In this document: positions 6,580 through 31,658 of the stretch, piece after piece
Layout of the letters: each line of letters starts with the position of its first letter
Position numbering within the stretch: position 1 is the stretch's first letter
From: a virus
Length of the DNA: 64,000 bases
IMG/VR virus record: IMGVR_UViG_3300045988_103931
Span: 10,801 to 74,800 of that record
Direction: 5' to 3' (one strand)
The notes under the pieces: model-generated
Told to the model about the DNA's origin: nothing
The model's input: only the letters and a program-made list of their open reading frames with translations
The model's database searches: none
Made by a program: the position numbers and the translations under genes

Positions 6580-6648
6580 AGAGTGACCGCCGAAAGGCGG
6601 GTAATGCGAGTACCGAAAACGGTAGCGGTCACAACTCCGCAAGAAAGG
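6580..6648 (+). promoter_or_regulatory. conserved structured intergenic RNA element, copy S1
   Basis: AGAGTGA-CCGCC-gaaa-GGCGG-GTAATGCG..TACCG-aaaa-CGGTA-GCGG-tcacaact-CCGC-aAGAAAGG. Homologous to 15828-15916 and 31589-31658. Confidence 0.55.
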
Positions 6649-6658
6649 AACAAACAAA

Positions 6659-6925
6659 ATGAAATACGCAAGAAATATATACATACGCAATATATTTAGC
6701 AGTATGTACTCATTCGATTCACGGGATTCTGAATATCGCGAAATCGACCTCAAAGAAGCTACACGAAAGATGAATTCTCTCGAAAATATCTTAACGTGGT
6801 TCACAAAATATGAAACAGGAAGCGCAATAGTCTATTTACACCATAAAATTGAAAAAGAGAAAGACATTCAATATTGGAACACCATGGTTAAGGAAACAAT
6901 CGGAGAATATATTTTCTACAAATAA
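6659..6925 (+). CDS. hypothetical protein
   Basis: ATG preceded by the AGAAAGGA SD of element S1. 88 aa. Confidence 0.6.
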   Translation: MKYARNIYIRNIFSSMYSFDSRDSEYREIDLKEATRKMNSLENILTWFTKYETGSAIVYLHHKIEKEKDIQYWNTMVKETIGEYIFYK

Positions 6926-6978
6926 AGAATAAATTCACCGAACGAGAGCGGTTATTCTCCCGTAGAAAGGACTAAAAT

Positions 6979-7299
6979 ATGAAAACACGCATTATCGAAA
7001 ATATTTCAATAGCATTGTATCTTTCTTTTATAGTCTTGTGTGGAACGGCTGCATACTGGTGGGAGAACCTCACGAGCGCGGAAACATTAATAGGGTGGTG
7101 TATTTGCCTTGCCGTGCTTTTTGCCGCTGTGAGCGGTTGGAGAGCGTTTGTGAGACATGGTCTTGAAGTCATAGAATGGAGAGCAACACATAGAGCAATC
7201 CAGTATGACGCAAGAGGAAGTAGACAGGATGAAAACCACCTTGGTTACGTTTCGTCAGAATCAATACGAGAGATCAGCAAGAGAGGAAGAAATGAATAG
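6979..7299 (+). CDS. small membrane protein
   Basis: Preceded by the hairpin-SD element (6944-6970). Two TM helices (ISIALYLSFIVLCGTAAYWW, LIGWCICLAVLFAAVSGW). Confidence 0.6.
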   Translation: MKTRIIENISIALYLSFIVLCGTAAYWWENLTSAETLIGWCICLAVLFAAVSGWRAFVRHGLEVIEWRATHRAIQYDARGSRQDENHLGYVSSESIREISKRGRNE

Positions 7300-7657
7300 C
7301 TCAATATGGAAAGGAAAAGAAATAAGTGATTCACTTATTTTGAGAACAACGGAACGTTCCGCGCTAATTGCAATGCCACGTTATAGTGAGTATAGCGGAT
7401 ATACTTTTTGGCATCCTCTAAAATTAGTTCGGCGCGAATATGGCATTGTGTCTCTCAGATATACGGATGATTTTCAATTCCGTTTGCAGAAACGTGAGAA
7501 AACAAGAAAAGGGCAATGGGAACTTACGGACGAAGTTACACTAACGGCAGAAGAAATTGAGGATATTCTATCGGAAGAAGAACCACTGATATACACGCCG
7601 AAACCGTTAGAACCAGAACACGCAACAGTTGATGAAAGTTTGGTGGATGATGAGTAA
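7292..7657 (+). CDS. hypothetical protein upstream of SNF2 ATPase
   Basis: ATG 7292 with GAGAGGAAG SD overlaps the upstream stop (ATGAATAG). Earlier in-frame ATGs at 7205 and 7229 would overlap the previous gene by 70-95 nt. Confidence 0.55.
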   Translation: MNSSIWKGKEISDSLILRTTERSALIAMPRYSEYSGYTFWHPLKLVRREYGIVSLRYTDDFQFRLQKREKTRKGQWELTDEVTLTAEEIEDILSEEEPLIYTPKPLEPEHATVDESLVDDE

Positions 7658-8891
7658 TACAAAAACACAAAATCAAGCAATAGAAAAATTAGGACGATTG
7701 AAAGTTGGTGCGCTATTTATGGAGATGGGAACAGGGAAAACGAAAACCGCCCTTGATCTTATCGCGTCCAAACAAAACAAGATAGATTATACGCTTTGGA
7801 TATGCCCTTGCTCATTAAAAACGGAAATCGAATCCGAACGGCAAAAGTGGCATCCAGAATTAGAACTTGACGTTGTAGGCTGTGAGAGTATCGGCAGCAG
7901 TAACAGAATTTATCTTGAACTCATGAAAAAAGTAGAGGGAAAGCGAACATTTATCGTTGTAGATGAAAGTCTTAAAATCAAGAATCGTCACGCAAAAAGA
8001 ACGATGAGGATAACAAAGTTAGGAGAAGAAGCAAAGTATAAATTGATTCTCAACGGAACTCCTATATCGAAAAGTTATTGCGATTTGTGGACACAAATGG
8101 AATTTTTAAGTCCGAAAATACTCTCGATGTCATACAATCAATTCTACAATACATACTGCGAATATTACACGCGCGGAAAATACAAAGGAAGAATAAAGAG
8201 GTTTGTAAATATACCACACCTTATAGATAAGATATCTCCGTATGTATTTGAAGCTGCACTTGATATAAACACTCAGAAAATTTACCATACACGTTGTTAC
8301 TCAACTCCGATGGACAAATACGAAGAATACAAAGAAGAAATATTCGAACAATATTATGATAATAAAGAGGATGACTTAAATTTTAATGCGTTCTCAATGA
8401 AACTCCAAAAATATTATGGCGAACATTCCGACAGAACGGAATGCATAAATAACCTAATAGAAGAAATAGGCGATCAGGTGATTGTCTTTGTTAGATTTAT
8501 AACGAGCATTCCCGAAGGAGCGCGCAAAATCACAGGAGCTGAAAAACAGTGTGAACGCAAGAATATATTGGATTCATTCAAACGAAAAGAATTTAATGTG
8601 TTGTACATTACTTACGGTTGCGGGTCTTTTGGGCTTAACTTACAGTTTTGCAAGAATATGATATTTGCGGAACACACATGGGACTACGCTGTGAGGGAAC
8701 AAGCAGAAGCAAGAATATATAGAATGGGGCAAGGTGAGGAAGTCAATTATTACAACATGATATGTGATGGCGTGGGACTTGAGGAAATGATATTCGATTG
8801 TGTATCAAAGAAAAGCAATATGCTTGATACGGTGAAAAAAGAGATACAGAAGCACAACGGTAGTACAAAAGATTTTATCAAAACCCTATAA
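7647..8891 (+). CDS. SNF2-family ATPase/helicase
   Basis: MGTGKTKTAL (motif I), VVDESLKIKN (II), LILNGTPISKSYCDLW (III), GLNLQ....WDYAVREQAEARIYRMGQ (V/VI). Start is ATG 7647 or 7650, overlapping the upstream stop. Confidence 0.85.
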   Translation: MMSNTKTQNQAIEKLGRLKVGALFMEMGTGKTKTALDLIASKQNKIDYTLWICPCSLKTEIESERQKWHPELELDVVGCESIGSSNRIYLELMKKVEGKRTFIVVDESLKIKNRHAKRTMRITKLGEEAKYKLILNGTPISKSYCDLWTQMEFLSPKILSMSYNQFYNTYCEYYTRGKYKGRIKRFVNIPHLIDKISPYVFEAALDINTQKIYHTRCYSTPMDKYEEYKEEIFEQYYDNKEDDLNFNAFSMKLQKYYGEHSDRTECINNLIEEIGDQVIVFVRFITSIPEGARKITGAEKQCERKNILDSFKRKEFNVLYITYGCGSFGLNLQFCKNMIFAEHTWDYAVREQAEARIYRMGQGEEVNYYNMICDGVGLEEMIFDCVSKKSNMLDTVKKEIQKHNGSTKDFIKTL

Positions 8892-8893
8892 AT

Positions 8894-8959
8894 ATGAACA
8901 ACGATTTACAAATTGTTTATAAAATAATGCAGAATTAAGTGCCGCTTGTGTGGTATAAT
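8894..8959 (+). promoter_or_regulatory. conserved promoter/operator cassette, copy B
   Basis: ATGAACAAC-GATTTACA-AATTGTTTAT, GCAGAAT, GTGCCGC-ttgt-GTGGTATAAT. Confidence 0.6.
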
Positions 8960-9013
8960 ATATACAGAACAAAAGAAAAGCCTACGGGCAAAGCGAGAAA
9001 GAGAGAAAATAAA

Positions 9014-9487
9014 ATGGCAAGAGCGGTAGCAAAGTGTAAATGCGCGACGTGTGGCAAAGAGTTTGAAGTTATCAAGCGTGATATGCGCAACAGTGCAGCG
9101 GCAAGAGACTTTGAAGAATGGGCGGCTAAAAACTGTGATGAATGCTCGGAATGCTATAAAGCGAGAATTGAAACAGAGAAAGCTAAGAAATTCAACGAGA
9201 TTGACGCAGAAGTCAATTTTCCCACACTGACAGCAGTATCTGATAAGCAGTTGGCGTTTGCCAACAAGAGACGTACCGAATATGTTATAGGGCATACAGA
9301 AACAATCAAAGCAATGAGTGAGTTTCTGAAAACACTTGATAGCCGTAAACAAGAGTTGGAACGGATGTGTGCCGAACACGGGACAACATTTGAAGTGGAA
9401 TATAAAAGAACTATCGAACTATATAAGAAAGAATATACAATCCTGACAGAGACAAGCGCAGGAAAGCTCCTTGATGTTATCGCGTAA
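9014..9487 (+). CDS. Zn-ribbon protein, unknown function (first gene of the triad operon)
   Basis: ATG 9014 with GAGAGAAAAT leader, downstream of the cassette-B -10 (the listed start 8939 lies inside the promoter). CKCATCG...CDECSEC cysteine pairs. Confidence 0.6.
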   Translation: MARAVAKCKCATCGKEFEVIKRDMRNSAAARDFEEWAAKNCDECSECYKARIETEKAKKFNEIDAEVNFPTLTAVSDKQLAFANKRRTEYVIGHTETIKAMSEFLKTLDSRKQELERMCAEHGTTFEVEYKRTIELYKKEYTILTETSAGKLLDVIA

Positions 9488-9546
9488 ATAAAACAATCTA
9501 CTTGCAAAGAACTGCGCTAACGGTTTGACGGGCAGAAAGGTTGACG

Positions 9547-10407
9547 GTGTTTTATATAGGAGATTGGGATAAGCAGAAAATCATTTCCCACTACATCGAA
9601 AACAATGATGTAAAAAAAGTCTTGGTGATATACAGCAAGCAACGGAATGAATATGAAACGGGCATAGAAACCCGATATATAGAATTACATCTTGCTAAAG
9701 CACATGAGACGCACTACGAGTTATTACAGTACATAAACAGATACACGCTAATTGTTATGGATGATTTGTTAGTATCACAGCAAAGATACATGAACGAATA
9801 TAACTGTGTTGCTAACTTTGTCAATCAAACCCCGCACAGACTTGTATTTAACTATCTCCCGTTTATTGAGCAAAAAGACGATTTCATGATTCTGCTTGAC
9901 TTTTACAACAGAGTGAAATACAAGGGCGAAAGATTTGATTATGAGCTTTTCAAAGACTTCAAATACTTCATCAAGCCTGTGCATATTAAAGTCAATTTTC
10001 ATGAAGTGGAGGTAATGAATGAAGATGTAAGAAATTACAATCAGCAAAGGGATGAATTGTTCGCCGAAATCGGTCTTGCAAATCCGCAGATAATCCCTAA
10101 TAGATTATCCGCAATGTGTGGAGATGTAAAGTATAAAACCGCTCCATTCGATAAAATGATTGCGAGAAATCGGCGATATAAGAATTTAACCACATTCAAG
10201 GATTCTGCGGTTAATCCGATTCTGGAATTTCCCGTTAAAAGACAAGACTTTGTTGAGTGGATTTCAAGAACGAAACAGACGGAGATTGATGTATTAACAA
10301 GCCAGTTGAGCATGGATGAATGGTATAAACAGGATTATCTGAACTGGATAGAAAGGCTTGAAGAATTTTATGATAAGGCAAACATTTATCGGAATAAACG
10401 TAGTTGA
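9547..10407 (+). CDS. orphan protein X1 (first gene of triad 1)
   Basis: GTG 9547, 6 nt after GAAAGG. Paralogous to 12046-12765 (YIGDWDKQKI / YIGEYDKTKI; HRLVFNYLP..DDFMILLDF / HRLIFNYFP..EDFMILYDM). No motif I recognise. Confidence 0.6.
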   Translation: MFYIGDWDKQKIISHYIENNDVKKVLVIYSKQRNEYETGIETRYIELHLAKAHETHYELLQYINRYTLIVMDDLLVSQQRYMNEYNCVANFVNQTPHRLVFNYLPFIEQKDDFMILLDFYNRVKYKGERFDYELFKDFKYFIKPVHIKVNFHEVEVMNEDVRNYNQQRDELFAEIGLANPQIIPNRLSAMCGDVKYKTAPFDKMIARNRRYKNLTTFKDSAVNPILEFPVKRQDFVEWISRTKQTEIDVLTSQLSMDEWYKQDYLNWIERLEEFYDKANIYRNKRS

Positions 10408-11509
10408 AGCAACAAAGAAAAGAATCGAGTGGATTTTTGATAACTTTGAACACATAGTCGTAAGCATTAGTGGCGGGAAAGATAGCACGGTTCTTGCGTA
10501 CATGACATTGCAAGAAGCGCACAAGAGAAACCGAAAGATAGGCATTTTCTTCCTCGATGAAGAAGTGGTCTATCAAAGCACGGTAGATCAGGTGCGGTAC
10601 TTGATGGAACTTTATCCAGAAAACACGGTGAAGATGTGGTATCAATTGGAGTTTAATCTCACAAATGCCACAAGCCTTGATGAAACACAGTTTAAAGTAT
10701 GGGATAAAGACAAGCAAGATATTTGGATGAGACCGAAAGAACCGGACAGCATTACATATCCAACATGGGACTTGAGCAAAGAAACAATCCGCAACAAAAA
10801 GAAAGGTTTTGGGTTTTTCGACGCTATGGATAACTTTGTAGCCACATACACAAATACGGCATATCTAATCGGATTAAGAGCAGCCGAAAGTTTGAACAGG
10901 TGGAGAGCGGTTACAAAGTACGCAGGAATCCCAAACGTCTATTGGAGTACATACAGAAACAACGGCAATTATAACCTATATCCGCTGTACGATTGGAACT
11001 TTCAAGACATTTGGAAATATCTTTACGAAAACAAAATAAGATACTCCAAAATATACGATTATCAGTATAAAAAAGGACTTGGTATGAAAGACATGAGAGT
11101 GTCGAGTTTGATACACGAAAAGTCATTTCATTCACTTGTCGAACTTCCGGAGTTTGAGCCGGAAACATACGATAAGCTAATAATCAGAACACAGGGGGTG
11201 CAGGTCGGAAATATCTATGGCAAAGACGATTTAATGCTCAGATGTAGGAAATTGCCTAAAAATTTCAAAGATTGGATGGAATACAGAGATTTTCTGTTAT
11301 CGACTGTAAAGGAAGACGATATAAAAGCGATATTTGAAAAGCGTTTCTCGAAACAGCTTAACAACAACTACGTCGCGCGTCAGCAGTGCAAACAGCTAAT
11401 ACTGAATGACTATGAAAACAATCTTGGAATAACGAACGGCGAGGACAAACGAGAAAAAGAACTGAAATACTGGAAAGGAGTTTTATATGGTGAAAGTTAT
11501 ACAGAGTGA
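10370..11509 (+). CDS. PAPS-reductase-family PP-loop enzyme, IbrA-like (triad 1)
   Basis: VSISGGKDSTV PP-loop, IGLRAAESLNRWR, long C-terminal extension (ARQQCKQLILNDYENN). Start uncertain (ATG 10370 or TTG 10358) and overlaps X1. Confidence 0.7.
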   Translation: MIRQTFIGINVVEATKKRIEWIFDNFEHIVVSISGGKDSTVLAYMTLQEAHKRNRKIGIFFLDEEVVYQSTVDQVRYLMELYPENTVKMWYQLEFNLTNATSLDETQFKVWDKDKQDIWMRPKEPDSITYPTWDLSKETIRNKKKGFGFFDAMDNFVATYTNTAYLIGLRAAESLNRWRAVTKYAGIPNVYWSTYRNNGNYNLYPLYDWNFQDIWKYLYENKIRYSKIYDYQYKKGLGMKDMRVSSLIHEKSFHSLVELPEFEPETYDKLIIRTQGVQVGNIYGKDDLMLRCRKLPKNFKDWMEYRDFLLSTVKEDDIKAIFEKRFSKQLNNNYVARQQCKQLILNDYENNLGITNGEDKREKELKYWKGVLYGESYTE

Positions 11510-12044
11510 AAAAGGAGAAATTAAACTACCATGTTTCGATGTGGTGTTGGTTGACATTGATAAGGTTGTGGCGAATGACTACAACCCCAACCATGTCAGC
11601 GTAAAAAATATGCAGTTACTTGAAGAAAGCATTATAAGCAACGGCTTTTGTTTCCCTGTGGTAACCATACATGATGAAAAGAAAGACGAGTACATTATTA
11701 TAGACGGCTTTCACAGATACACGATATTCAAGGACTATCTAAAGGCAAAGCAGCTTCCTGTTGTTGTACTCGACCACGATTTGAGCAAACGTATGATTGC
11801 AACGGTTCAGTTTAACAGAGCAAGAGGAGTTCATCATGTGGAGCTTATGGGGGATCTTGTGAAAGCGTTGGCGGGAGAGGGAATAACAGACGAACAAATA
11901 GCTGTAAGCCTTGGAATGGAAATGGAGGAAGTGTACAGGCTGAAGCAAATCACGGGCGTTGCAGAGCTGTTTAAAAATCAGTTATACAGTCCTGCATGGG
12001 AAATGAAAGACATGGACAAGAACGTGTACTATCAGGGAGATTGA
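11487..12044 (+). CDS. ParB/Srx-fold protein, IbrB-like (triad 1)
   Basis: AAAGGAG SD. ANDYNPNHV...YIIIDGFHRY...QFNRARG, typical ParB N-terminal domain. Overlaps the upstream gene by 23 nt. Confidence 0.7.
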   Translation: MVKVIQSEKGEIKLPCFDVVLVDIDKVVANDYNPNHVSVKNMQLLEESIISNGFCFPVVTIHDEKKDEYIIIDGFHRYTIFKDYLKAKQLPVVVLDHDLSKRMIATVQFNRARGVHHVELMGDLVKALAGEGITDEQIAVSLGMEMEEVYRLKQITGVAELFKNQLYSPAWEMKDMDKNVYYQGD

Positions 12045-12045
12045 T

Positions 12046-12765
12046 ATGAAAAAAATATACATAGGAGAATACGACAAAACAAAAATTGTCAATGAATATA
12101 TCTCCGAAAACAAAATTGATAAGGTATATATTATCGGAGACGATATATCAATTGACTTTGAGAACAAGGAAAACATAAAATTTTCCGATACCATAATGTA
12201 CAAATATTTCTACAGGCTATTGCAGGAAATCAATAAGGATTCGTTAATCGTACTTAATGAGTGCTTAAAAAAGCAGAACAGATACGATTTAACATATAAC
12301 TGTATCAGACGGTATATGTTACAGACAGACCACCGCTTAATCTTCAACTATTTCCCCATCGTCAAAGAACAAGAAGATTTTATGATCTTGTACGATATGC
12401 TTCAAAACAATCCGTTCTTGAAAGAACCCTATAAATATATCACTGAATTTGAAAATGTTGAAGTTAGCAAGGTTGTATTTGATGTCAACAAAACCGACGT
12501 TGTTTTGCCAGATGAGTGTGAAGCAGAGTATGAGCGTGAAAAAGAAAACCTCATCGGCAAGGTGAATAAAGACCCCGATATAATTCCGAGAGGGTTGTTA
12601 AGATTCAGCGAAAAGAAGAAACCAAAGAACTATGACAGTTTGGCGAAAATTAAGCCAGTGATGAACGTGGCAGTAAGTCAGTTAAAGGTTGATACGTATT
12701 ATTACAACGAATTACTAAACTTTAGAAAGGAATTGACCGATGTCTTACAAAAAATACACGGATAA
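12046..12765 (+). CDS. orphan protein X2 (first gene of triad 2)
   Basis: AGGGAGA SD. Paralogue of X1. Confidence 0.6.
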   Translation: MKKIYIGEYDKTKIVNEYISENKIDKVYIIGDDISIDFENKENIKFSDTIMYKYFYRLLQEINKDSLIVLNECLKKQNRYDLTYNCIRRYMLQTDHRLIFNYFPIVKEQEDFMILYDMLQNNPFLKEPYKYITEFENVEVSKVVFDVNKTDVVLPDECEAEYEREKENLIGKVNKDPDIIPRGLLRFSEKKKPKNYDSLAKIKPVMNVAVSQLKVDTYYYNELLNFRKELTDVLQKIHG

Positions 12766-13855
12766 AACCGTGTTAGAAGCAACGAAAGAGAGAATCAGCT
12801 ACATTTTCGATGAGTTTGAAAACATCATTGTTTCTATCAGCGGGGGGAAAGACAGCGAAGTGTTGTGTTATCTTGCACTTCAAGAAGCAAGGAAAAGAGG
12901 CAGAAAGATAGGCATATTCTTTTTGGATGAAGAAGTTGTTTATAAATCCACCATAGAAATGGTGGAGTACCTCATGAGTATGTACCCCGAAAACACAAAC
13001 AGATTTTGGTTGCAAATTCCTTTTAATCTCACAAACTCAACAAGTTTCGCTGACGGGCAGGTGAATTGTTGGGAACAGGCAAAAAAACCTGTATGGATGC
13101 ACAAGAGAAGTGAGAAGAACATACTCAGAAAAACATGGTCGCATGAGACGCATATCGCAGACAAAAACAAAGGTTTTGGCTTCTACGATGTAATGTACAA
13201 CTTTGAATATTCATTTGAAAACACAGCTTTTCTTGTCGGATTAAGAGCGGACGAAAGTTTGAACCGATACAGAACAATGGTAAAGCGCAAAGGCTACAAG
13301 GACATTTACTGGAGTACAAAAAGAGCAGGAACAAATTATTCGTTTTATCCTCTTTATGACTGGGGATTCAATGATGTATGGAAGTTCATCGGAGAAAACA
13401 ATCTGAAATATCATAAGTTTTATGATTTTGCCTACAAAAAAGGAAAGCACATCAATGAGATCAGAGTGTCGAGCTTGACGCACGAAAAAAGTTTCAAGTC
13501 GATTCAAGACTTGCCCGAATTTGAGTTTGATACATACGAAAAACTATTGAAGCGTATAAAAGGCATTTCGTTTGCGCAAGAAACCGCAAAAGACAGGAAA
13601 ATGTTTAAGGTGCAGAAGCTCCCGCAGAACTATAAGTCGTGGAGAGAGTACAGAGATTTTCTACTTGCAACATACCCAGACGAAAGCAAGAAACCTATTT
13701 TTGAAAAACGATTTGCCAAGCATCTTGACAATGAATTTGTTGCAAGACAGCAGTGCAAACAGCTTGTTCTTAACGATTACGAAAATAACTTCCCGGTAAA
13801 AAACACAGAAGACCCGATTATGGAAAGAATCAATTATTGGAGGAAAGTGTTATGA
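12740..13855 (+). CDS. PAPS-reductase-family PP-loop enzyme, IbrA-like (triad 2)
   Basis: VSISGGKDSEV, VGLRADESLNRYR, ARQQCKQLVLNDYENN. Roughly half the residues are identical to 10370-11509 by eye. Confidence 0.7.
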   Translation: MSYKKYTDKTVLEATKERISYIFDEFENIIVSISGGKDSEVLCYLALQEARKRGRKIGIFFLDEEVVYKSTIEMVEYLMSMYPENTNRFWLQIPFNLTNSTSFADGQVNCWEQAKKPVWMHKRSEKNILRKTWSHETHIADKNKGFGFYDVMYNFEYSFENTAFLVGLRADESLNRYRTMVKRKGYKDIYWSTKRAGTNYSFYPLYDWGFNDVWKFIGENNLKYHKFYDFAYKKGKHINEIRVSSLTHEKSFKSIQDLPEFEFDTYEKLLKRIKGISFAQETAKDRKMFKVQKLPQNYKSWREYRDFLLATYPDESKKPIFEKRFAKHLDNEFVARQQCKQLVLNDYENNFPVKNTEDPIMERINYWRKVL

Positions 13856-14385
13856 AGATAGATATTCCGTGCCTTAACATCAAACTTGTTGACAGAGATA
13901 TGTTACAGGCGAATAATTACAACCCGAACAATGTGCCAAAGGATAAGATGGAATTGCTCAAGCAGTCGATTATCGACAATGGTTTTTGCTTTCCTATTGT
14001 AACGATTTGGAGCGAGGAAGATGAGAAGTATATCATCATTGATGGATTCCATAGATATACAATGTGTATGCCGGAGTGGTTGGACATAAAACAAGTGCCT
14101 GTCGTTGTGTTGAAACACGATTTAAGTCAGCGAATGGCAGCAACGATTCAGTTCAACAAGGCAAGGGGAGTTCATGCCGTCGACGGTGACGCAGAAATTG
14201 TTAGAAGTCTAATCGAACAGGGATTGAGCGAGGAAGAAATAAGCAAGCACCTTGGTATCGACATGGAAACCGTACTGAGATATAAGCAACTCACAGGAAT
14301 TGTTGAACTGTTCAAGAACGTTGAATATAGCAAGAGTTGGGAAGTCGGAGAGTTCGACGGAGAGGATGAAAAGGAGGATAGATAA
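13852..14385 (+). CDS. ParB/Srx-fold protein, IbrB-like (triad 2)
   Basis: GGAGGAAAG SD. ATGA overlap with the upstream stop. ANNYNPNNV...YIIIDGFHRY...QFNKARG. Confidence 0.7.
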   Translation: MKIDIPCLNIKLVDRDMLQANNYNPNNVPKDKMELLKQSIIDNGFCFPIVTIWSEEDEKYIIIDGFHRYTMCMPEWLDIKQVPVVVLKHDLSQRMAATIQFNKARGVHAVDGDAEIVRSLIEQGLSEEEISKHLGIDMETVLRYKQLTGIVELFKNVEYSKSWEVGEFDGEDEKEDR

Positions 14386-15017
14386 TGAGCAAATGGGAAT
14401 ACGGCGGCGTATATAAGAATTACGATATGGATGGAGAAATCAATATCGGCGGCGGTATCTTGAAAGTGCATAATATTTTCGATCCGCTCCCTGATTTCAT
14501 GAAAAAAGCGGATTGCATTTTCTGTGACCCGCCTTGCTCACAAGGAAACATAAACAGCTTTTACACAAAAGCCGATAGAACAGATTATCAGACGAGCTAT
14601 GACCCGTTTGAAAATCGTTTCTTTGAGTGTATAGATGAGATAAAGCCTAACACTTTGTTTGTTGAAGTGTTCGCACAAAATGCAGCGAATTTCGCGGACA
14701 GATGCAATGATAGATATGCAAATATCCATGTCTACGAAACTACTTATTATCACAAAAAAGATTGCAAGTGTTTTATCATAGCTTGTTCAAACGTCATCGA
14801 CATACATAATCTGCCGTTTGAGGACATGGACGAAGAGGACGTTATAGCGTGGATAGGAAAGAATATTAATTATGAGTGTATTGGTGATTTATGTATGGGC
14901 AGAGGACTTGTAGGATGGCACTCATATATCAACGGAAAGCCTTTTGTCGGAACGGAAATAAACAAAAAACGGCTTGCTGTGCTTATTGATAAGATAACAA
15001 AACATCCGAAAAATTGA
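14385..15017 (+). CDS. methyltransferase-like protein with DPPC motif (permuted, beta-class order)
   Basis: ATAATG coupling to ParB-2. CIFCDPPCS where amino-MTases carry (D/N/S)PP(Y/F/W). C-terminal GDLCMGRGLVG...FVGTEIN resembles the SAM-binding FxGxG motif followed by G.E motif. Confidence 0.5.
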   Translation: MSKWEYGGVYKNYDMDGEINIGGGILKVHNIFDPLPDFMKKADCIFCDPPCSQGNINSFYTKADRTDYQTSYDPFENRFFECIDEIKPNTLFVEVFAQNAANFADRCNDRYANIHVYETTYYHKKDCKCFIIACSNVIDIHNLPFEDMDEEDVIAWIGKNINYECIGDLCMGRGLVGWHSYINGKPFVGTEINKKRLAVLIDKITKHPKN

Positions 15018-15040
15018 CTATACCGCCAAAATGGTATATT
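15014..15040 (+). promoter_or_regulatory. promoter with ATACC-N8-GGTAT operator
   Basis: TTGACT, then ATACCGCCAAAATGGTAT, with TGgTATATT as an extended -10. Upstream of the XRE regulator gene. Confidence 0.55.
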
Positions 15041-15107
15041 ATGAACTAAACAAAGTAAAGAGTGTTTGCTTATCGTGAACACTCTTTAAGTCTGAAAGGG
15101 TGATACG

Positions 15108-15338
15108 ATGACGTTAAAAGAAAAAAGGATTGAATCAGGATATACACAAAGTGAACTATCAGAAAAAGCAGGAATGAGCCTTAGAACATTACAGCACTTT
15201 GAAAGAAATTATAGACTGCCAGACAAAGCGCAACTTGAAACGCTCTGCAAACTTGCAATCGTGCTTAATTGTCCGATTGACGATTTAATTGTGAACGACG
15301 ATCTGAGAGAGCTATACCGAAAAGCGAAAACACTATAA
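15108..15338 (+). CDS. XRE-family HTH transcriptional regulator
   Basis: GYTQSELSEKAGMSLRTLQHFERN is a classic HTH_3. 76 aa. Confidence 0.8.
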   Translation: MTLKEKRIESGYTQSELSEKAGMSLRTLQHFERNYRLPDKAQLETLCKLAIVLNCPIDDLIVNDDLRELYRKAKTL

Positions 15339-15352
15339 AGGGCATGGAAACA

Positions 15353-15378
15353 AAACCGACATAAACTGTCGGTTTTTG
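15353..15378 (+). terminator. rho-independent terminator
   Basis: AAACCGAC-ataaact-GTCGGTTT followed by TTG. Confidence 0.65.
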
Positions 15379-15412
15379 TGTGAGGTGAAATTTCAGAAAA
15401 TTCTCTCTAATT

Positions 15413-15477
15413 ATGAACAGTGATTTACATTTTGTTTACAAAATAATACAGAATTAATACCGCTAAAGTGGTAAAAT
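15413..15477 (+). promoter_or_regulatory. conserved promoter/operator cassette, copy C
   Basis: ATGAACAGT-GATTTACA-TTTTGTTTA, ACAGAAT, ATACCGCTAAAGTGGTAAAAT. Nearly identical to copy G over about 44 nt. Confidence 0.6.
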
Positions 15478-15532
15478 ATAATCACAAGGAAGAACAAAAC
15501 ACAAACACAAAACAGGAAGAGAGAAAGAAAAA

Positions 15533-15820
15533 ATGAAACGCATTAATTTTGATAAGAACATTAAGGCAAGCACGATTGAGAAAGCATCAAAGAAGTTTGC
15601 TGAATATCTTGCAAAAAATGGTTACGAATGGGCGGCAGAAGAAATTATTGAGAGCGTTGAGAACGGGTATTTCTATTGCTCGAACGCGACAATAGCTAAT
15701 CTTGTCAAAGGCGGCAGACCCGTTCACCCCGAAACAAGCGACTGGACATACTACTGGGGAATTGAAAACGTAGATGGTAATGCCTGGTACGCATGGTTTA
15801 TCGAAAGAGTTGAAGATTAA
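15533..15820 (+). CDS. hypothetical protein (first gene of cassette-C unit)
   Basis: Purine-rich leader/SD. 95 aa. Confidence 0.6.
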   Translation: MKRINFDKNIKASTIEKASKKFAEYLAKNGYEWAAEEIIESVENGYFYCSNATIANLVKGGRPVHPETSDWTYYWGIENVDGNAWYAWFIERVED

Positions 15821-15827
15821 TAATTGT

Positions 15828-15916
15828 AGAGTGGCGGCGGCAACGCCGTTAATGCAGTCTAACGCAGATTCAACGCATTAAAACAGTGTTAGAGCGGTCA
15901 CAACTCCGCAGAAAGG
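15828..15916 (+). promoter_or_regulatory. conserved structured intergenic RNA element, copy S2
   Basis: AGAGTG-GCGG-cggcaa-CGCC-GTTAATGC...GCATTAA...GCGG-tcacaact-CCGC-AGAAAGG. Confidence 0.55.
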
Positions 15917-15924
15917 TAAAAATC

Positions 15925-16401
15925 ATGAAACCCGAAAAAATAGAAATACACGGCAATATTTATGAGGTTTGCGACATTACTGATGGTAAAGTTTACTTGC
16001 AGTCGGTAAATGATGATTATCACATGGATTTATCATCTGAAGAATTTTGCAAATTGATGAAAAACAGAATTAAAGAGATAGACAAGATTCTCGATGATGA
16101 ATCTATCAGTGATGATGAGTTTCAAGATTTGACTGATGAAGCTAAATACTTTACCGCTTTATTAGGTAAGGTCGAAAGAGCAATGGAGTTTAGCAACGTA
16201 AAAGAAATCAAGCCAAATGAATGGACGGCGAATTTTCTGAATTCTTTCGGTGCAGTTCCTACCACTCATAACATATCCGTTAGGCAGTACGAAACGTTTA
16301 GAAAATTTAACAACGGAGATTCATTCAAGTACAACGGGTTGCGATATGATTTCGGAAAAGGGTGCGGCAATTACGCAACTCTTGTTATATCCAAACTTTA
16401 A
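15925..16401 (+). CDS. hypothetical protein
   Basis: ATG 15925, 8 nt after the S2 SD. The listed start 15886 lies inside the RNA element. Confidence 0.6.
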   Translation: MKPEKIEIHGNIYEVCDITDGKVYLQSVNDDYHMDLSSEEFCKLMKNRIKEIDKILDDESISDDEFQDLTDEAKYFTALLGKVERAMEFSNVKEIKPNEWTANFLNSFGAVPTTHNISVRQYETFRKFNNGDSFKYNGLRYDFGKGCGNYATLVISKL

Positions 16402-16453
16402 ATTAAATAAACCAAGCCGGAGTGGTTATTCTCCGCCAGAAAGGAATAAAACA

Positions 16454-16819: not shown

Positions 16820-16871
16820 ATAAGTGTAAAATTAAACCTGTGCTATCGGGTTACGGGCAGAAAGGTATAAA

Positions 16872-18639: not shown

Positions 18640-18644
18640 TTTTC

Positions 18645-18815: not shown

Positions 18816-18842
18816 GATATACCAAATTAGAAAGGAGTAACT

Positions 18843-19304: not shown

Positions 19305-19309
19305 TAAAA

Positions 19310-19513: not shown

Positions 19514-19514
19514 A

Positions 19515-26523: not shown

Positions 26524-26534
26524 GGATAACAACG

Positions 26535-27272: not shown

Positions 27273-28817
27273 TTATTGCCTGTTTATTTTCGCGTAAAAG
27301 AAAACATTCGGCTGCCGGAATGAATTGTTATACTCCATATCCCCATTAGGGGAGACGATGAGCGTAATATCAATGCTTTCGTCGCTGATAATGATTGATT
27401 CTACAAATTTATCAAAAATCGTTTTTAACACTTCATCGTCTGTATCGTCGGAGATGGATAACATTTTGTTTAGGTAATCGACTATCATTGAATGCGTCAA
27501 GGTTAATTTCGTTTGACGTTCAATATTGTATATTTGTTGTTCTACTTCTTGCAGTTCGTTTTCTTTCTCGCTGATATGCTCCGCAAGAAACGAATCGCTG
27601 ACTATTCTTTTTGCTCTTAGATCGATCAATTCTTTCATTTCGGATTTCAATGCAGATGAACGAGATTTTAACTGTTTGAGTTTGTCCTTTTGTTCGGTCG
27701 GGTTTTCTCCCAATATTTTAAGCATTTCGTTTGCAATGCTGTAAATAGATTTTTCGTTTAATATGTGACGCTTTATTTCTTTCATTGTGATTTCTTCTAA
27801 ATAGTCTTTTCTGATTCTTTTGCAAGAACAAGTGTGATAGTCTTTGCTTTGCGAACAGACATAATATTTATAATCGTATTTTTTCCCGTTCTGCATACTG
27901 CCGGAACGGATACCGAAATAGTGACTTCCGCAGTTGGCACATCTGATCTTTCCTGTCAAAGCATAAAGCTCTTTCCTCTTTCGCGGTCTAACGCCTTTTT
28001 GCGTGCTGTGCCGATATTGTACTCTGTCCCATAGTTCTTTATCTATTATAGGCGGTATTATATCATGCACAATTATTGGCTCATGCCCTTGCGCACTGTA
28101 CCTTAGTACGCCGATATAAAAATCATTTCTAAGCATTCTTGCTATCGTTTGTATGCTAAAATATTTCCCGCGCCTTGTGAATGCTCCATTGTCTTTGAGA
28201 TATGTCTGTAAATATCTAAGAGAATAATTATCGGCATACAACTCAAATATCTTGTTTACGATTTTACTTTCAAATTCATCTGGAACATACTTCTTTCTTG
28301 TTTTCTTGCCGTGTTGTACAACCTCTAATTTGTAACCATATGGAACTGTACCACCCGCGAAAAATCCCTCTGACACCATTTCCCGCATTGCGCTTTTAAC
28401 GTGGTCGCTGATAACGGCACTTTGATATTCGTCTATGTTTGCCATAACACCAATCATTAGTTTGCCTGACGATGTTTCATCGTCTACCATTTGCGTTACG
28501 GATATGAGTTTAACGCCGTGCTTCTTAAACAACTGGCGATATTTGTGACTTTCGTAAGCATTCCGAAAAATACGGCTGAATTTGTAGACTACAACAACGT
28601 CAATCATTCCGTTTTTAACGTCCCGTATCAATTCATGAAACGCTTCACGCCCTGCAACTTTCGTCCCTGTTATAGCTTGATCTATATATGTTTTTGTGAG
28701 TGGCATATCGTTTTTGTCTAAATATGCTTGGCACTCTGTTAGCTGATATTCAATAGAGAAACCATCGTCTTGTTTCGTGTCTGAATATCTTCCATATATC
28801 CCTGTCCTTTTGTTCAT
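27273..28817 (-). CDS. int: large serine recombinase (integrase)
   Basis: GIYGRYSDTKQ (catalytic Ser), VVVYKFSRIFRN, recombinase domain, Zn-ribbon CANCGSHY...YYVCS, C-terminal coiled coil. 514 aa. Confidence 0.9.
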   Translation of the reverse strand: MNKRTGIYGRYSDTKQDDGFSIEYQLTECQAYLDKNDMPLTKTYIDQAITGTKVAGREAFHELIRDVKNGMIDVVVVYKFSRIFRNAYESHKYRQLFKKHGVKLISVTQMVDDETSSGKLMIGVMANIDEYQSAVISDHVKSAMREMVSEGFFAGGTVPYGYKLEVVQHGKKTRKKYVPDEFESKIVNKIFELYADNYSLRYLQTYLKDNGAFTRRGKYFSIQTIARMLRNDFYIGVLRYSAQGHEPIIVHDIIPPIIDKELWDRVQYRHSTQKGVRPRKRKELYALTGKIRCANCGSHYFGIRSGSMQNGKKYDYKYYVCSQSKDYHTCSCKRIRKDYLEEITMKEIKRHILNEKSIYSIANEMLKILGENPTEQKDKLKQLKSRSSALKSEMKELIDLRAKRIVSDSFLAEHISEKENELQEVEQQIYNIERQTKLTLTHSMIVDYLNKMLSISDDTDDEVLKTIFDKFVESIIISDESIDITLIVSPNGDMEYNNSFRQPNVFFYAKINRQ

Positions 28818-29655: not shown

Positions 29656-29704
29656 ATAGGTACAGTAAAGGAAAGCAAAACGCACGATAGAGAGGAAAAG
29701 AAAA

Positions 29705-29929
29705 ATGAAAAAATTTGAAGTTGGAAAGTCCTACAGCATGAGAAGCGCGTGTGATCATAATTGCGTATGGACGTACACAGTGACCGAAAGAACAGCACAG
29801 ACAATTACAATCAGTGATGGCAAGGTTAGCAAGAAATGCAGAATCTCAAAAGACGTTTCCGAATACAGGAACGCCGAAACCGTTTACCCGTTGGGCAAAT
29901 ATTCAATGTGTCCTTCGTTGACCGCTTGA
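29705..29929 (+). CDS. hypothetical protein
   Basis: Purine-rich SD. 74 aa. Confidence 0.6.
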   Translation: MKKFEVGKSYSMRSACDHNCVWTYTVTERTAQTITISDGKVSKKCRISKDVSEYRNAETVYPLGKYSMCPSLTA

Positions 29930-29968
29930 ATGCGTCACAACGAAACAAATATAAGAAAGGTGATTAAA

Positions 29969-30133
29969 ATGAAAAGCATTTATATCAAGATCGAGAAAGA
30001 CGAAATGTGCGGCTATACGGTGTATGTCAACGGCGAGGTGCTTCTTGAATGCCTTGCGGAAGATGAAGTGGAAGGAATCACCGTAAAAGAGATTGCGGAA
30101 ATGCACGAGAAATACGAAAGCGGTGAACTGTAA
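29969..30133 (+). CDS. hypothetical protein
   Basis: ATG 29969 after AAAGGTGA. The listed start 29930 lies inside the TAATGCGTCAC motif. Confidence 0.5.
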   Translation: MKSIYIKIEKDEMCGYTVYVNGEVLLECLAEDEVEGITVKEIAEMHEKYESGEL

Positions 30134-30360
30134 TGCTTATAAGAGACAAGGACAGTGCAGAGGGATATATTCACCTCTGCGCCGATAGTCACAAATACAC
30201 GAAAAAGGCACTTGCGGAAAGGTTGCAAATTAAGTTGCACGATGTTACAGCTTATACGTTGATAGATGGCAAAAATGGCGTTGATATGGTGCGCATTAAG
30301 TATTGCCCGTATTGCGGAGTAGAGATCGAGAAAGACGAATACGAAAAGGGGAACTTATAA
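30133..30360 (+). CDS. hypothetical protein with C-terminal Zn-ribbon
   Basis: TAATG overlap. CPYCG. Confidence 0.55.
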   Translation: MLIRDKDSAEGYIHLCADSHKYTKKALAERLQIKLHDVTAYTLIDGKNGVDMVRIKYCPYCGVEIEKDEYEKGNL

Positions 30361-31262
30361 TGAGATATTACGAAATTGACGAAACGGCTGCAAGACGTGG
30401 GCGCGAATTGTGGAGCTTTTCCGAATACAAGAACGGCAGCAAAACATCGGAATACAGAGCGCAAGTTGATGAGGTATACAAAATCGTTGATGAACTTCCT
30501 GACGGTCTGAAAGAAAAAGGGGCGGCAATGGCTGAAAGATACGCCCGCCGCCTTGCTGAATGGTATAACAAGCAATTCCGCATTGAAGCGATGTGTCCAT
30601 CGGTTATGATTAGCGGCGGTAGCAACTTCCCCGTGAGAAAGAAAGAAAAACAGAACGCCGCGCAAGATAATCATTATCAGTTATACAATAAAATTCAGCA
30701 GATTCCAGAGAGAATCAAAAGACTTGCGAGAGGTTCAAATATCATTAAATCGGGAGATGCTGACGCATTGGAACAGCTTCAAAAGAAAGTCGAGAAAGCA
30801 GAAGAATTACAGGCAGAAATGAAAGCCGTAAACGCCTATTACAGAAAGAATAAGACGCTTAAAGGGTATAAGGACTATACCGACGAAAAGGCGGCAAAAC
30901 TCGATGAAGCGATCAAGGAGAGCATGTGGGGAGTTCCATTCCCTCCGTATGAGTTGACAAACAACAATGCGAAAATCAGAAACACAAAGGCAAGAATCGC
31001 GGAGCTTGAACGGCTGAAAGAATCCGCAAAAGATACAGAAGAACAGACTGACGAATATAGCACGGATTTGTTTAGAGTGGTGGAGAATACGGAGATCATG
31101 CGCTTGCAGTTGTTCTTTGGCGAAAAGCCAGACGCAGATACAAGAGCCGTGCTAAAGAAGAACGGATTTCGATTCGCGCCGTCACAGAACAATGCTTGGC
31201 AACGTCAGTTGAACGCGAATGGCAAGTACGCATTGAAGCGAGTAATTGAAGAACTCTCTTAA
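30360..31262 (+). CDS. DUF3560-like protein (tentative)
   Basis: TAATG overlap. C-terminal LKKNGFRFAPSQNNAWQRQL resembles the GF.W......W motif of plasmid/phage DUF3560 proteins. Confidence 0.5.
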   Translation: MRYYEIDETAARRGRELWSFSEYKNGSKTSEYRAQVDEVYKIVDELPDGLKEKGAAMAERYARRLAEWYNKQFRIEAMCPSVMISGGSNFPVRKKEKQNAAQDNHYQLYNKIQQIPERIKRLARGSNIIKSGDADALEQLQKKVEKAEELQAEMKAVNAYYRKNKTLKGYKDYTDEKAAKLDEAIKESMWGVPFPPYELTNNNAKIRNTKARIAELERLKESAKDTEEQTDEYSTDLFRVVENTEIMRLQLFFGEKPDADTRAVLKKNGFRFAPSQNNAWQRQLNANGKYALKRVIEELS

Positions 31263-31280
31263 AACAAAATGTATGTAATT

Positions 31281-31345
31281 ATGAACACGGTTTTACAATC
31301 TGTTTACAAAATAATACAGAAACGATACCTCAAATGCGGTATAAT
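31281..31345 (+). promoter_or_regulatory. conserved promoter/operator cassette, copy F
   Basis: ATGAACACG-GTTTTACA-ATCTGTTTA, ACAGAAA, ATACCTCAAATGCGGTATAAT. Confidence 0.6.
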
Positions 31346-31393
31346 ATAGTCACAAGGAAAGAACAAAACAAACCGCAGAAAGAGAGAAAGAAA

Positions 31394-31585
31394 ATGAAAG
31401 AATTTAGAATCAAGGGAACATGGTACACCGTAAAAGCAAATTGCATTAGACAGGCATTGAAGAAACTGGTGGACGAAGATGGAGACTTTACCTACACTCC
31501 ACACTGGTACACAAGAAGCAATCGGAAATCGTGGGCTGAATTTGAAACAAGCTACGGTTATCGCGGAATCGTCGAAGAGGTATAA
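31394..31585 (+). CDS. hypothetical protein (first gene of cassette-F unit)
   Basis: ATG 31394 after the AGAGAGAAAGAAA leader. The listed start 31334 lies in the promoter. Confidence 0.55.
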   Translation: MKEFRIKGTWYTVKANCIRQALKKLVDEDGDFTYTPHWYTRSNRKSWAEFETSYGYRGIVEEV

Positions 31586-31588
31586 AGC

Positions 31589-31658
31589 AGAGTGGCGGCG
31601 GCAACGCCGTTAATGCACACAACGAAAGTTGTACGGTCACAAGTCCGAAATTGGAGGG
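31589..31658 (+). promoter_or_regulatory. conserved structured intergenic RNA element, copy S3
   Basis: AGAGTG-GCGG-cggcaa-CGCC-GTTAATGCAC-ACAAC-gaaa-GTTGT-ACGG-tcacaagt-CCG..GGAGGG. Confidence 0.55.

Follow-up and report, generated by a model that had tools for sequence, protein, structure and literature searches.

Type-P5 twister ribozymes between the cistrons of three operons in a temperate, Clostridia-type phage

Three related structured elements lie on the plus strand of the 64-kb stretch of phage DNA analysed here (the window), at positions 6577-6640, 15825-15909 and 31586-31648. Judged from sequence, they are self-cleaving twister ribozymes of type P5 and belong to an already known class, not to a new RNA class. 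The twister class was reportedly described by Roth et al. in 2014. Both the class membership and a strict placement between cistrons were established in this analysis. The phage is temperate and of Clostridia type, and each element is very probably a type-P5 twister on one of its polycistronic mRNAs, where it would cut itself between cistrons. We infer that the three predicted twisters cleave in vivo; most likely, they would cut the operon mRNA in two and part the first cistron from the remainder, presumably for the purpose of uncoupling its stability or expression from the downstream genes. While the twister class as such is ordinary, this intergenic layout lends itself neatly to testing the purpose of such ribozymes.

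Each element begins 0-18 nt past the stop codon of a small ORF (6322-6558, 15533-15820, 31394-31585), which is the first ORF after a copy of a repeated promoter-like cassette (6235, 15441, 31309). An SD follows 1-4 nt beyond the end of each element, and then an ATG at 6659, 15925 and 31666. The initial annotation had already placed three copies here, each after the stop codon of the first small gene past cassette A, C or F, and the coordinates agree. Its location of the elements thus stands; they really begin, however, with the 5' strand of P2 (CGCA, UGUA and AGCA), 3 nt before the stated position, and the actual end is the P4 stem rather than the SD. The cassette occurs in eight copies with the layout (T/C)AGAA(T/A)-17 nt-TATAAT, and copies A, C and F probably act as promoters. 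A terminator-like hairpin (6164-6189) is located immediately upstream of cassette A. The operon surroundings, all on the plus strand, are as follows.

6235..6291: promoter-like cassette A, repeat family D2; presumed transcript start for twister 1
6322..6558: operon A first cistron, 78 aa, ORFan
6659..6925: operon A second cistron, 88 aa, ORFan; SD AGAAAGGA at 6642-6649
15441..15497: promoter-like cassette C, upstream of twister 2
15533..15820: operon C first cistron, 95 aa, ORFan
15925..16401: operon C second cistron, 158 aa, ORFan; SD AGAAAGG at 15910-15916
31309..31365: promoter-like cassette F, upstream of twister 3
31394..31585: operon F first cistron, 63 aa, ORFan; stop codon TAA (31583-31585) abutting twister 3
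31666..31800: operon F second cistron, 44 aa; SD GGAGGG at 31653-31658

The proteins flanking the three twisters showed no mutual homology (blastp E > 0.2), in agreement with the earlier view that the three upstream genes are not obviously homologous. Downstream of twister 1 lies a helicase gene (7629-8891), whose relatives appear to point to a Clostridia host.

The Rfam model RF02684 (twister type P5; gathering score 37.6 bits) aligned at full length, over model positions 1-58, with all three copies and scored 52.1, 37.8 and 49.9 bits for copies 1, 2 and 3. In ascending order, the E-values of the three copies were 6e-8, 2e-7 and 3e-4 when the whole 64-kb window was compared with 4227 families. 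The RNA, at first considered unclassifiable, is therefore placed above the gathering score of a known family in all three copies, and the reported lack of a riboswitch match was borne out, as Rfam gave only twister for the three segments. A covariance model search had been named as a test. R1, an independent model built from 44 twisters of viral contigs with the window sequences left out, returned with filters off exactly three window matches (59.7, 32.6 and 58.1 bits for copies 1, 2 and 3), the next best reaching only 6.7 bits. The two models confirm the proposed conserved structured RNA module. P1, P2, P3, P4, the conserved core, the U-A cleavage dinucleotide and both pseudoknots are present in all three copies (all parts on the plus strand).

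6577..6640: twister 1, type P5, found by RF02684, R1 and minimum-free-energy (MFE) fold
6577-6580 with 6605-6608: twister 1 P2
6581-6585: twister 1 L1/T1 strand GAGUG
6587-6600: twister 1 P1, CCGCC-GAAA-GGCGG
U6602 to A6603: twister 1 predicted scissile bond
6609-6610: twister 1 T2 strand AG
6611-6624: twister 1 P3, UACCG-AAAA-CGGUA
6625-6628 with 6637-6640: twister 1 P4, GCGG with CCGC
6629-6636: twister 1 L4; CAC 6630-6632 pairs in T1, CU 6635-6636 in T2
15825..15909: twister 2, type P5 with long P3, found by RF02684 and R1 (R1 E 6e-7)
15825-15828 with 15853-15856: twister 2 P2, (U)GUA with UGC(A), containing a U.G wobble
15829-15833: twister 2 GAGUG
15834-15849: twister 2 P1, GCGGCG-GCAA-CGCCGU
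U15850 to A15851: twister 2 predicted scissile bond
15856-15857: twister 2 T2 strand AG
15858-15893: twister 2 P3, 36 nt
15894-15897 with 15906-15909: twister 2 P4, GCGG with CCGC
15899-15901 and 15904-15905: twister 2 L4, CAC and CU
31586..31648: twister 3, type P5, found by RF02684 and R1, with matching MFE fold
31587-31589 with 31614-31616: twister 3 P2, GCA with UGC
31590-31594: twister 3 GAGUG
31595-31610: twister 3 P1, GCGGCG-GCAA-CGCCGU
U31611 to A31612: twister 3 predicted scissile bond
31617-31618: twister 3 T2 strand AC
31619-31632: twister 3 P3, ACAAC-GAAA-GUUGU
31634-31636 with 31645-31647: twister 3 P4, CGG with CCG
31638-31640 and 31643-31644: twister 3 L4, CAC and GU

Thermodynamic folding alone gave P2, P1, P3 and P4 in the copies, with z-scores of -2.6 to -3.2; the MFE fold reproduced these helices in twister 1 (z = -3.2) and the same four in twister 2. 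The common strings AGAGTG, TAATGC and CGGTCACAA(C/G)TCCG had been reported exactly, while the hairpins drawn around them required revision. Hairpin 1, given as GGCG-gcggcaa-CGCC, is in copies 2 and 3 a 6-bp stem with a GNRA loop (GCGGCG-GCAA-CGCCGU). Hairpin 2 of copy 2, given as TTAATGC-N19-GCATTAA, would consume the catalytic core and is really UCUAAC(GC)...(GU)GUUAGA at 15858-15893. The description as three hairpins overlooked the enclosing P2 helix as well as the pseudoknots T1 (GUG:CAC) and T2, which are complementary in all three copies. T2 is AG:CU in copies 1 and 2 and AC:GU in copy 3, a double, compensatory change which accounts for the C/G variable base seen initially.

The copies show no class-level difference from type P5: they share P1, P2, P4 and the optional P3, the core AGAGNG, UAAUGC and GGUCNCAANNCC, the T1 and T2 pseudoknots, the U-A cleavage dinucleotide and the circular permutation that places the RNA termini at P5. 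Compared with the Rfam consensus, the middle pair of T1 is U-A instead of G-C and T2 is AG:CU or AC:GU instead of GC:GC; copy 2 further differs by its 36-nt P3 and the U.G pair in P2. The flanks do not form a P5 stem. To our knowledge, no ligand of twisters has been described.

Pairing was also conserved in IMG/VR viral contigs, where 109 distinct twisters share this permutation. The variable T1 pair was complementary in 109/109, with four pair types, and T2 in 108/109, whereas among 20 pattern matches rejected by the twister filter, which requires GC in front of AGAG and a P1 hairpin with 4 bp or more, T2 was complementary in just 5. In formal pair counts, 87-91% of cells were paired; sliding the partner lowered this to 27-44%, and none of 500 shuffles reached the observed pairing. 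For placement, 117 viral twisters were scored, each on the strand bearing its up- and downstream ORFs. The upstream stop codon is found within about 40 nt in 105 of them, ending -1 to +3 nt from GCAGAG in 69 of these 105, and the distance from P4 to the next start codon has a median of 26 nt. The order stop codon, ribozyme, SD and start is that of the window, and on some viral contigs four to six twisters stand between successive small genes. In relatives of the phage, twisters occupy syntenic positions, about 1 kb ahead of the helicase and 0.2-0.8 kb past the primase, and one of them has compensatory T1 and P4 changes. In the relative L120, a deletion has removed the catalytic core but left the flanking genes in place, and no twister was detected in the fetched flank of at least 9 of 20 primase relatives; the ribozyme may accordingly be dispensable.

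Bacterial twisters and hammerheads were previously found near phage genes, and processing of polycistronic mRNA was proposed (PMC6765202, PMC4604425). Among predicted twisters tested in vitro, about 94% cleaved (PMC11662667). For the window, we envisage that the RNA would fold into P2-P1-P3-P4 after transcription of P4 and its loop. L4 would dock on the GAGUG internal loop, forming T1 (GUG:CAC), and on the two nucleotides past P2, forming T2 (AG:CU or AC:GU). The 2'-OH of the U preceding AAUGC would then attack its own 3' phosphate, leading to co-transcriptional cuts after U6602, U15850 and U31611. The 5' product would consist of the promoter-proximal small cistron with its stop codon, ending in the GNRA-capped P1 hairpin and a 2',3'-cyclic phosphate. 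The 3' product would be the remaining operon. It would begin at a 5'-OH with seven or eight unpaired nucleotides, followed by hairpins P3 and P4 and by an SD left exposed. In operon A, the 78-aa cistron would thus go to the 5' product and the 88-aa cistron would become the first gene on the 3' product. Of the three roles considered initially, an RNase processing or stability signal comes closest; given twister ribozymes, processing would be autocatalytic and an RNase not needed.

The twisters might instead cleave and thereby down-regulate the downstream genes in a glmS-like manner, leaving the first cistron alone strongly expressed. According to work cited in PMC6765202, RNase J1 degrades the 5'-OH product of the glmS ribozyme in Firmicutes, and therefore twister cleavage could lower rather than protect downstream expression; the helicase relatives indicate a Clostridia host, and the 7-8 unpaired nucleotides starting the 3' product are a possible exonuclease entry point. 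We regard this as rather unlikely, as two stable hairpins and an exposed strong SD come right after the free end, the twister 3' fragment is reported to have its 5' end buried in the fold (PMC8782182), and essential replication functions such as the helicase are encoded downstream. With a still lower probability, at least one copy, notably copy 2, is an inactive relic kept as intergenic filler or as stabilising hairpins. Twister 2 is marginal (37.8 bits against the 37.6-bit cut-off) and the sole one of 67 distinct cores with U.G for C-G in P2, which is effectively 3 bp; its P3 loop holds GCAUUAA, which might pair with the catalytic UUAAUGC and trap an inactive fold. The lineage does contain relics, as the core deletion of L120 illustrates, and the D16 repeat resembles debris of a twister. 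Against this, none of the three copies has lost an invariant core position, a pseudoknot or the U-A site, and imperfections of P1, P2 and P4 were tolerated in vitro, though in type-P1 permutations only (PMC11662667). Moreover, T2 of copy 2 is matched (AG:CU), even though copies 2 and 3 do not differ in their 5' halves and copy 3 uses AC:GU; this speaks for selection acting on the pairing.

Riboswitch-like or protein-operated translational control of the downstream gene without self-cleavage would suit the typical operator position of the elements next to the SD, but is very improbable. No riboswitch family was found by Rfam in the three segments, conservation falls on precisely the nucleotides of the twister catalytic core, and twisters of unrelated phages have the same ribozyme-SD spacing. 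Folding predictions leave the SD accessible whether or not the upstream sequence is included: on average it is unpaired with a probability of 0.75-0.97 in copies 1 and 2, in both the uncleaved transcript and the 3' cleavage product, and of 0.38-0.56 in copy 3, whether cleaved or not. Control of translation by masking of the SD is thus unsupported, and nothing pointed to the proposed protein-binding role. Finally, the 29-nt 5' half is the same in copies 2 and 3, as is an 18-nt 3' end in copies 1 and 2, so that recent duplication or recombination accounts in part for the copies. A similarity by chance, or a plain mobile or recombination repeat with incidental hairpins, is nevertheless effectively refuted by the E-values against a curated model, the compensatory changes in the window and in more than 100 viral homologues, and the strict placement between ORFs.

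Self-cleaving twisters that would divide the operon mRNAs have counterparts among known systems. The glmS ribozyme cleaves itself within a bacterial mRNA, whose fate depends on the 5'-OH product (PMC6765202); in contrast to the window twisters, which stand between cistrons, it is a feedback sensor in the 5' UTR that requires GlcN6P as cofactor. Selective RNA processing and stabilisation in Clostridium also involves an intercistronic cut, a stem-loop at the new 3' end and decoupled expression of neighbouring cistrons (PMC4423207). There, host RNases cut, whereas the cut in the window would be autocatalytic and phage-encoded. Cleavage, if true, would represent such processing and stabilisation or an insulator similar to RiboJ, an engineered ribozyme which decouples neighbouring expression.

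The window contains one further ribozyme-like element of a known family:

32125..32187, plus strand: type II hammerhead RF02276, 38.7 bits (gathering score 37), predicted cut after C32147

Missed by whole-window scans, it was detected in a 151-nt scan (E 6e-7) in the operon of twister 3, two genes downstream and again between stop codon and SD. Type II hammerheads, like twisters, are self-cleaving and occur near phage genes, often close to twisters (PMC4604425, PMC8782182, PMC6765202), but have another fold and catalytic core. Operon F thus shows a second class of self-cleaving ribozyme, a predicted hammerhead, and a homologue in L167 has a compensatory stem I. D8, a small pseudoknot element that is unclassified, is present in three copies, and the D16 repeat resembling twister debris lies at 29929-29964 and 31801-31836.

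Comparison of the whole window with Rfam at the gathering threshold returned four tRNAs and three matches to Twister-P5 (RF02684), the latter coinciding with the elements for which the initial annotation had proposed an unmatched structured RNA module. Reading of the three stretches confirmed the strings and positions reported there, and the failure to find a fitting riboswitch class was borne out by the absence of any Rfam aptamer family match for these segments at E values up to 1; the view of an RNA without a match had to be abandoned. For class assignment we required a full-length match at the RF02684 gathering score of 37.6 bits. All three alignments span model positions 1-58 of 58, with copy 2, which is marginal as a twister, lying above the gathering score by 0.2 bits only. 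The three elements are new members of a known ribozyme class, twister type P5, and each is found between the stop codon of one small open reading frame (ORF) and the Shine-Dalgarno sequence (SD) of the next:

6577-6640 (+), twister copy 1, RF02684 52.1 bits, E 6e-8; upstream ORF 6322-6558, next ATG at 6659
15825-15909 (+), twister copy 2, RF02684 37.8 bits, E 3e-4; upstream ORF 15533-15820, next ATG at 15925
31586-31648 (+), twister copy 3, RF02684 49.9 bits, E 2e-7; upstream ORF 31394-31585, next ATG at 31666

In the RF02684 alignments, the 5' strand of P2 (CGCA, UGUA or AGCA) and the L1 strand GAGUG are followed by a GNRA-capped P1 hairpin, the sequence U|AA, the 3' strand of P2 (UGC(G)) and an inserted P3 hairpin, and the P4 loop reads UCACAA(C/G)U. 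Helices P1, P2 and P4, with P3 as an optional element, are present in twister order in all three copies, and the unconstrained minimum-energy fold of each copy is P2/P1/P3/P4 with z-scores of -2.6 to -3.2. A P2 of 3 bp is found in copy 3, and effectively also in copy 2, versus one of 4 bp in copy 1. The core strings AGAGNG, UAAUGC and GGUCNCAA, which represent L1, the cleavage site and L4, are found in every copy; their sole deviation is a C to U change in P2 of copy 2 (GUAGAG), which retains a wobble pair. The scissile phosphate of twisters is located between U and A of the P1/P2 internal loop, a site defined as N-A (U-A) (PMC6154101), and the dinucleotides U6602-A6603, U15850-A15851 and U31611-A31612 align with the UAA of RF02684. 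All copies show the type-P5 permutation P2(5')-P1 hairpin-P2(3')-P3 hairpin-P4 hairpin, in which P1 and P3 are loop-closed and the RNA enters and exits between P4 and P2. Inspection of the flanks of the copies by eye revealed no obvious complementarity for a P5 stem. The three hairpins drawn in the initial annotation correspond to P1, P3 and P4, although two of them were placed in the wrong register and P2 as well as both pseudoknots were missed. The TTAATGC/GCATTAA helix proposed initially was dropped as P3 of copy 2 in favour of UCUAAC/GUUAGA, which is found in both the Rfam alignment and the minimum-energy fold; it possibly represents a competing fold.

A covariance model, recommended initially as a check, was built from 44 viral twister sequences with the window copies left out (model R1). 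Applied to the window without filters, this model recovered exactly the three elements, scoring 59.7, 58.1 and 32.6 bits, whereas the next best hit reached 6.7 bits; pattern search and R1 revealed no further twisters in the window. The stretch 30133-30196 (+), a spacer between the gene ending at 30133 and the primase gene, holds TAATGC, GCAGAGGG and GTCACAA in the order of the twister core. It was rejected as a twister with 5.8 bits only and with its GCAGAGG taken up by a plain hairpin, and its strings are either due to chance or heavily decayed twister remains.

Docking of L4 on L1 and L2 forms the twister pseudoknots T1 and T2 (PMC6154101). In all three copies, T1 joins L1 with L4 through GUG (in GAGUG) and CAC (in UCACAA), which already differs by a double change from the Rfam consensus, GgG with CcC. 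T2, formed by nucleotides 3' of P2 with L4, reads AG:CU in the first two copies and AC:GU in the third. The C/G alternative noted initially in CGGTCACAA(C/G)TCCG therefore constitutes the 3' half of a compensatory pair.

Scanning IMG/VR with the pattern AGAGNG-N8-30-TAATGC-N10-40-CGGTCNCAA, in which the middle pair of T1 and all of T2 were left free, yielded at least 119 stretches (L001-L119). Twisters were selected by GC before AGAG and by a P1 hairpin with 4 bp or more, a filter that was waived for the three window copies since copy 2 has GU in place of GC. This gave 117 twisters with 109 distinct sequences among the matches listed and the window. The middle pair of T1 is a Watson-Crick pair in 109/109 distinct sequences among the matches listed (U-A in 91, G-C in 11, C-G in 6, A-U in 1). 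For T2, 108 of these 109 show complementarity in either of two registers, and the 20 pattern matches outside the twister filter are mostly non-complementary. Both registers were counted because choosing the register from P2 pairing alone failed for 25 of the 109 sequences. When 67 distinct cores were aligned over 34 columns, 87-91% of the cells were paired versus 27-44% with partners slid, and none of 500 shuffles reached the observed pairing or covariation score; as the search pattern itself dictates most columns, the information resides in T1, T2 and the outer pair of each of the helices P2 and P4.

P5-permutation twisters are abundant in viral contigs (at least 119 IMG/VR loci) and often occur in runs between successive small genes, with six in 2.9 kb in locus L046 and four each in L048 and L093. 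Among the matches listed, the 117 viral twisters lie on the same strand as the flanking ORFs. The stop codon of an upstream ORF is present within about 40 nt for 105 of them, and in 69 of these 105 it abuts P2, ending -1 to +3 nt before GCAGAG. Measured from the 3' end of P4, the next start codon (ORFs of at least 40 aa) is a median of 26 nt away among the same 117, usually with an SD in between. The layout in the window is the norm for phage twisters. This placement rule makes the hypothesis of operon processing directly testable. Each upstream ORF in the window is the first one behind a repeated cassette; such a position behind the first gene is regular locally but no general rule. Comparison by blastp upheld the initial statement that the upstream genes are not homologous and did not relate any of the six flanking proteins to another.

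The window is that of a temperate tailed phage or prophage, which also encodes a RecE-like exonuclease, a large terminase subunit, a portal and a major head protein besides the following genes:

27273-28817 (minus), serine integrase
7629-8891, helicase
30303-31262, primase

The nearest genome matches of the helicase are Clostridia MAGs with about 60% identity. A megablast search of 50,697 phage records with positions 5000-20000 gave no match and hence no cultured relative, and blastn of twister 1 against phages gave only chance matches to its A-rich ribosome binding part. PHROG and Pfam scans of ten flanking proteins identified ORFans except for an ArdC-N-like domain in 37078-37380; the content of the flanking genes provides no functional clue.

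The repeated cassette occurs in eight copies:

6235, 8923, 15441, 24632, 29619, 31309, 37011 and 52187 (starts; +), promoter-like cassette

The cores of 57 nt, with conservation extending up to 115 nt, follow the consensus AAUUAUGAACA..GAUUUACA..UGUUUACAAAAUAAU.CAGAAU..AUACCGC-N4-5-GGUAUAAUAUA. In these cores a TATAAT box, often with TG before it, has (T/C)AGAA(T/A) 17 nt upstream, and an ATACCGC/GNGGTAT inverted repeat overlaps the -10 box. Judged by these motifs, the eight cassettes are plausibly promoters. The first of those followed by a twister, cassette A, is preceded by a terminator-like hairpin, and the same cassette is also present in the relatives L120-L122. In five of the eight cases the spacer after the first ORF holds a conserved RNA element, namely a twister three times and the modules D16 and D8, described below, once each. 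Another promoter-like repeat (D6) has copies at 5825, 5996 and 57286. The third adjoins a near-threshold Rfam match to int-alpA RNA at 57346-57417 (+), with 35.1 bits versus a gathering score of 35.8, directly 3' of the major head protein gene.

A fourth ribozyme and two further modules occupy intergenic positions of the same kind:

32125-32187 (+), type II hammerhead (RF02276), 38.7 bits versus a gathering score of 37, E 6e-7
6932-6977, 16406-16451 and 37375-37420 (+), D8, an approximately 32-nt module AACCGAGCNGGAGCGGUUAUUCUCCNNNAGAAAGG between stop codon and SD
29929-29964 and 31801-31836 (+), D16, AAUGCGUCACAACGAAAC, directly after a stop codon and followed by an SD

The hammerhead is located two genes downstream of twister 3 in the same operon, where it is found between the stop codon of gene 31842-32123 and the SD and ATG (32202) of the next gene. 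Its core consists of CUGAUGA (32170-32176), GAAAC (32129-32133) and GUC (32145-32147), stems I and III are loop-closed, and cleavage is predicted after C32147. Stem I is UCGCGUG/CACGCGA, and its loop UUAGCU can pair by eye with GGCUAA of the 3' tail. In L167 (about position 5543), a homologue shows a compensatory stem I, UAUAAG/CUUAUA. The hammerhead surfaced only in an Rfam scan of 151 nt. Both whole-window scans missed it, including the one at E values up to 5, which revealed no further ribozymes, so that the Rfam filters cannot be regarded as exhaustive. The three twisters and the hammerhead share the slot between stop codon and SD, and three of the four ribozymes directly follow the first small cistron behind repeated promoter-like cassettes, which makes the locus an unusually clean natural design for testing the role of twisters in phage operons.

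D8, which ends in the SD, is predicted to fold into a compact H-type pseudoknot. Its stem S1 is ACCG:CGGU, replaced by ACCA:UGGU in copy 2, and S2 is GCNGGAG:CUCCN'GC, in which N:N' covaries as C:G, G:C and U.G. The module had no Rfam match at E values up to 10 and is absent from the 119 listed twister loci. Besides the window, it is present in L120, L122, L130, L149, L154, L157, L160, L161 and L163. Its occurrence is limited to close relatives and a few Clostridia/Eubacteriales MAGs, with too little variation for a covariation test. In the window, D8 lies one gene after twisters 1 and 2, and behind cassette G it holds the slot which twisters hold behind cassettes A, C and F. With low probability, D8 represents a novel type of element for RNA processing or for blocking exonucleases, or conceivably a new small ribozyme. 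As an unclassified element it adds to the value of the locus. D16 holds the twister strings AAUGCG and UCACAAC without any twister helix, was not found in any fetched locus and may be the debris of a deleted twister. We likewise consider it improbable that twister, hammerhead, D8 and D16 are interchangeable modules at first cistron boundaries in this phage lineage, forming a programmed layer of operon cutting and end protection behind early-type promoters.

Bacterial twisters and hammerheads, which are found near phage genes, were proposed to process polycistronic mRNAs (PMC6765202, PMC4604425), and the role of bacterial and phage twisters is considered largely elusive (PMC6765202). About 94% of predicted twisters were active in a high-throughput assay, and imperfections in P1, P2 and P4 as well as pseudoknot wobbles were tolerated, both for type-P1 permutations only (PMC11662667). 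Twister cleavage leaves 2',3'-cyclic phosphate and 5'-OH ends (PMC6154101). In the window, cuts are predicted after U6602, U15850 and U31611. The 5' product would comprise the stop codon of the first cistron plus 26-44 nt and end 1-2 nt past the P1 hairpin, and the 3' product is modelled to start with 7-8 free nucleotides followed by P3, P4 and the SD. As the P5 permutation would be cut in the middle of the fold, hairpins would flank both new RNA ends, and this may be why it is common or favoured in phages.

Presumably, cleavage would allow the promoter-proximal cistron and the downstream operon to follow separate fates, similar to the action of synthetic ribozyme insulators and to the selective RNA processing and stabilisation known from Clostridium (PMC4423207). 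The effect may go in either direction, because a 5'-OH end can serve RNase J1 as an entry point in Firmicutes, as shown for glmS (cited in PMC6765202). An SD-masking switch or translational operator was rejected because the SD is predicted to be accessible both before and after cleavage. An intrinsic terminator or attenuator was likewise rejected, as no terminator-like site was found on the + strand at 6577-6660, 15825-15925 and 31586-31666. The initial interpretation, which had named translational control, an RNase processing or stability signal and protein binding as options, was partly right in spirit, but the object is a known ribozyme class. Both the twister class and, in general terms, its association with phage genes were already known, and the identification mainly clears a false lead, as the elements are not a new riboswitch-like RNA.

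Relatives of the window supply natural variants for testing the role of twisters, including compensatory changes, extra copies and a core-deleted twister. L121 and L122, whose helicases share 73-80% identity with that of the window, have, like the window, a twister some 1 kb ahead of the helicase gene; L122 has two more, so that three twisters follow three successive small genes. Its homologue of twister 1, L122:4363-4427, changed T1 to GCG:CGC and P4 to GCGAG:CUCGC, both compensatory. As this variant misses the Rfam gathering score (37.3 bits with R1), real twister variants escape curated thresholds. The syntenic twister at L120:5026-5070 lacks UAAUGC, T2 and P3 with the neighbouring genes intact, apparently owing to a deletion between two CCGGU repeats. 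L120 represents a natural catalytic knock-out, suggesting that the ribozyme may be dispensable. Of the 20 loci with primase relatives (69-79% identity), at least 8 resemble the window in that one twister or two lie 0.2-0.8 kb downstream of the primase gene.

Several other features of the window were recorded. The four tRNA genes (Gln-UUG, Lys-UUU, Asn-GUU and Trp-CCA) lie at 54347-54862 (+) between head-morphogenesis genes. In the distant stretches 5432-5519 and 39900-39975, which are 86% identical, short AATGA(A/T/G)AATGA-type repeats precede tandem GTATCGTACCACGATTCG-like units. ORF 1744-3969 (741 aa) harbours several families of direct repeats of 56-87 nt at 1972-2913 (+) and therefore encodes a repetitive protein sequence, possibly that of a fibre. 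Finally, two paralogous PAPS reductase-like genes about 2.4 kb apart were identified at 10358-11509 and 12740-13855 (+), both matching PHROG 2302 (E 1e-87 and 2e-77).
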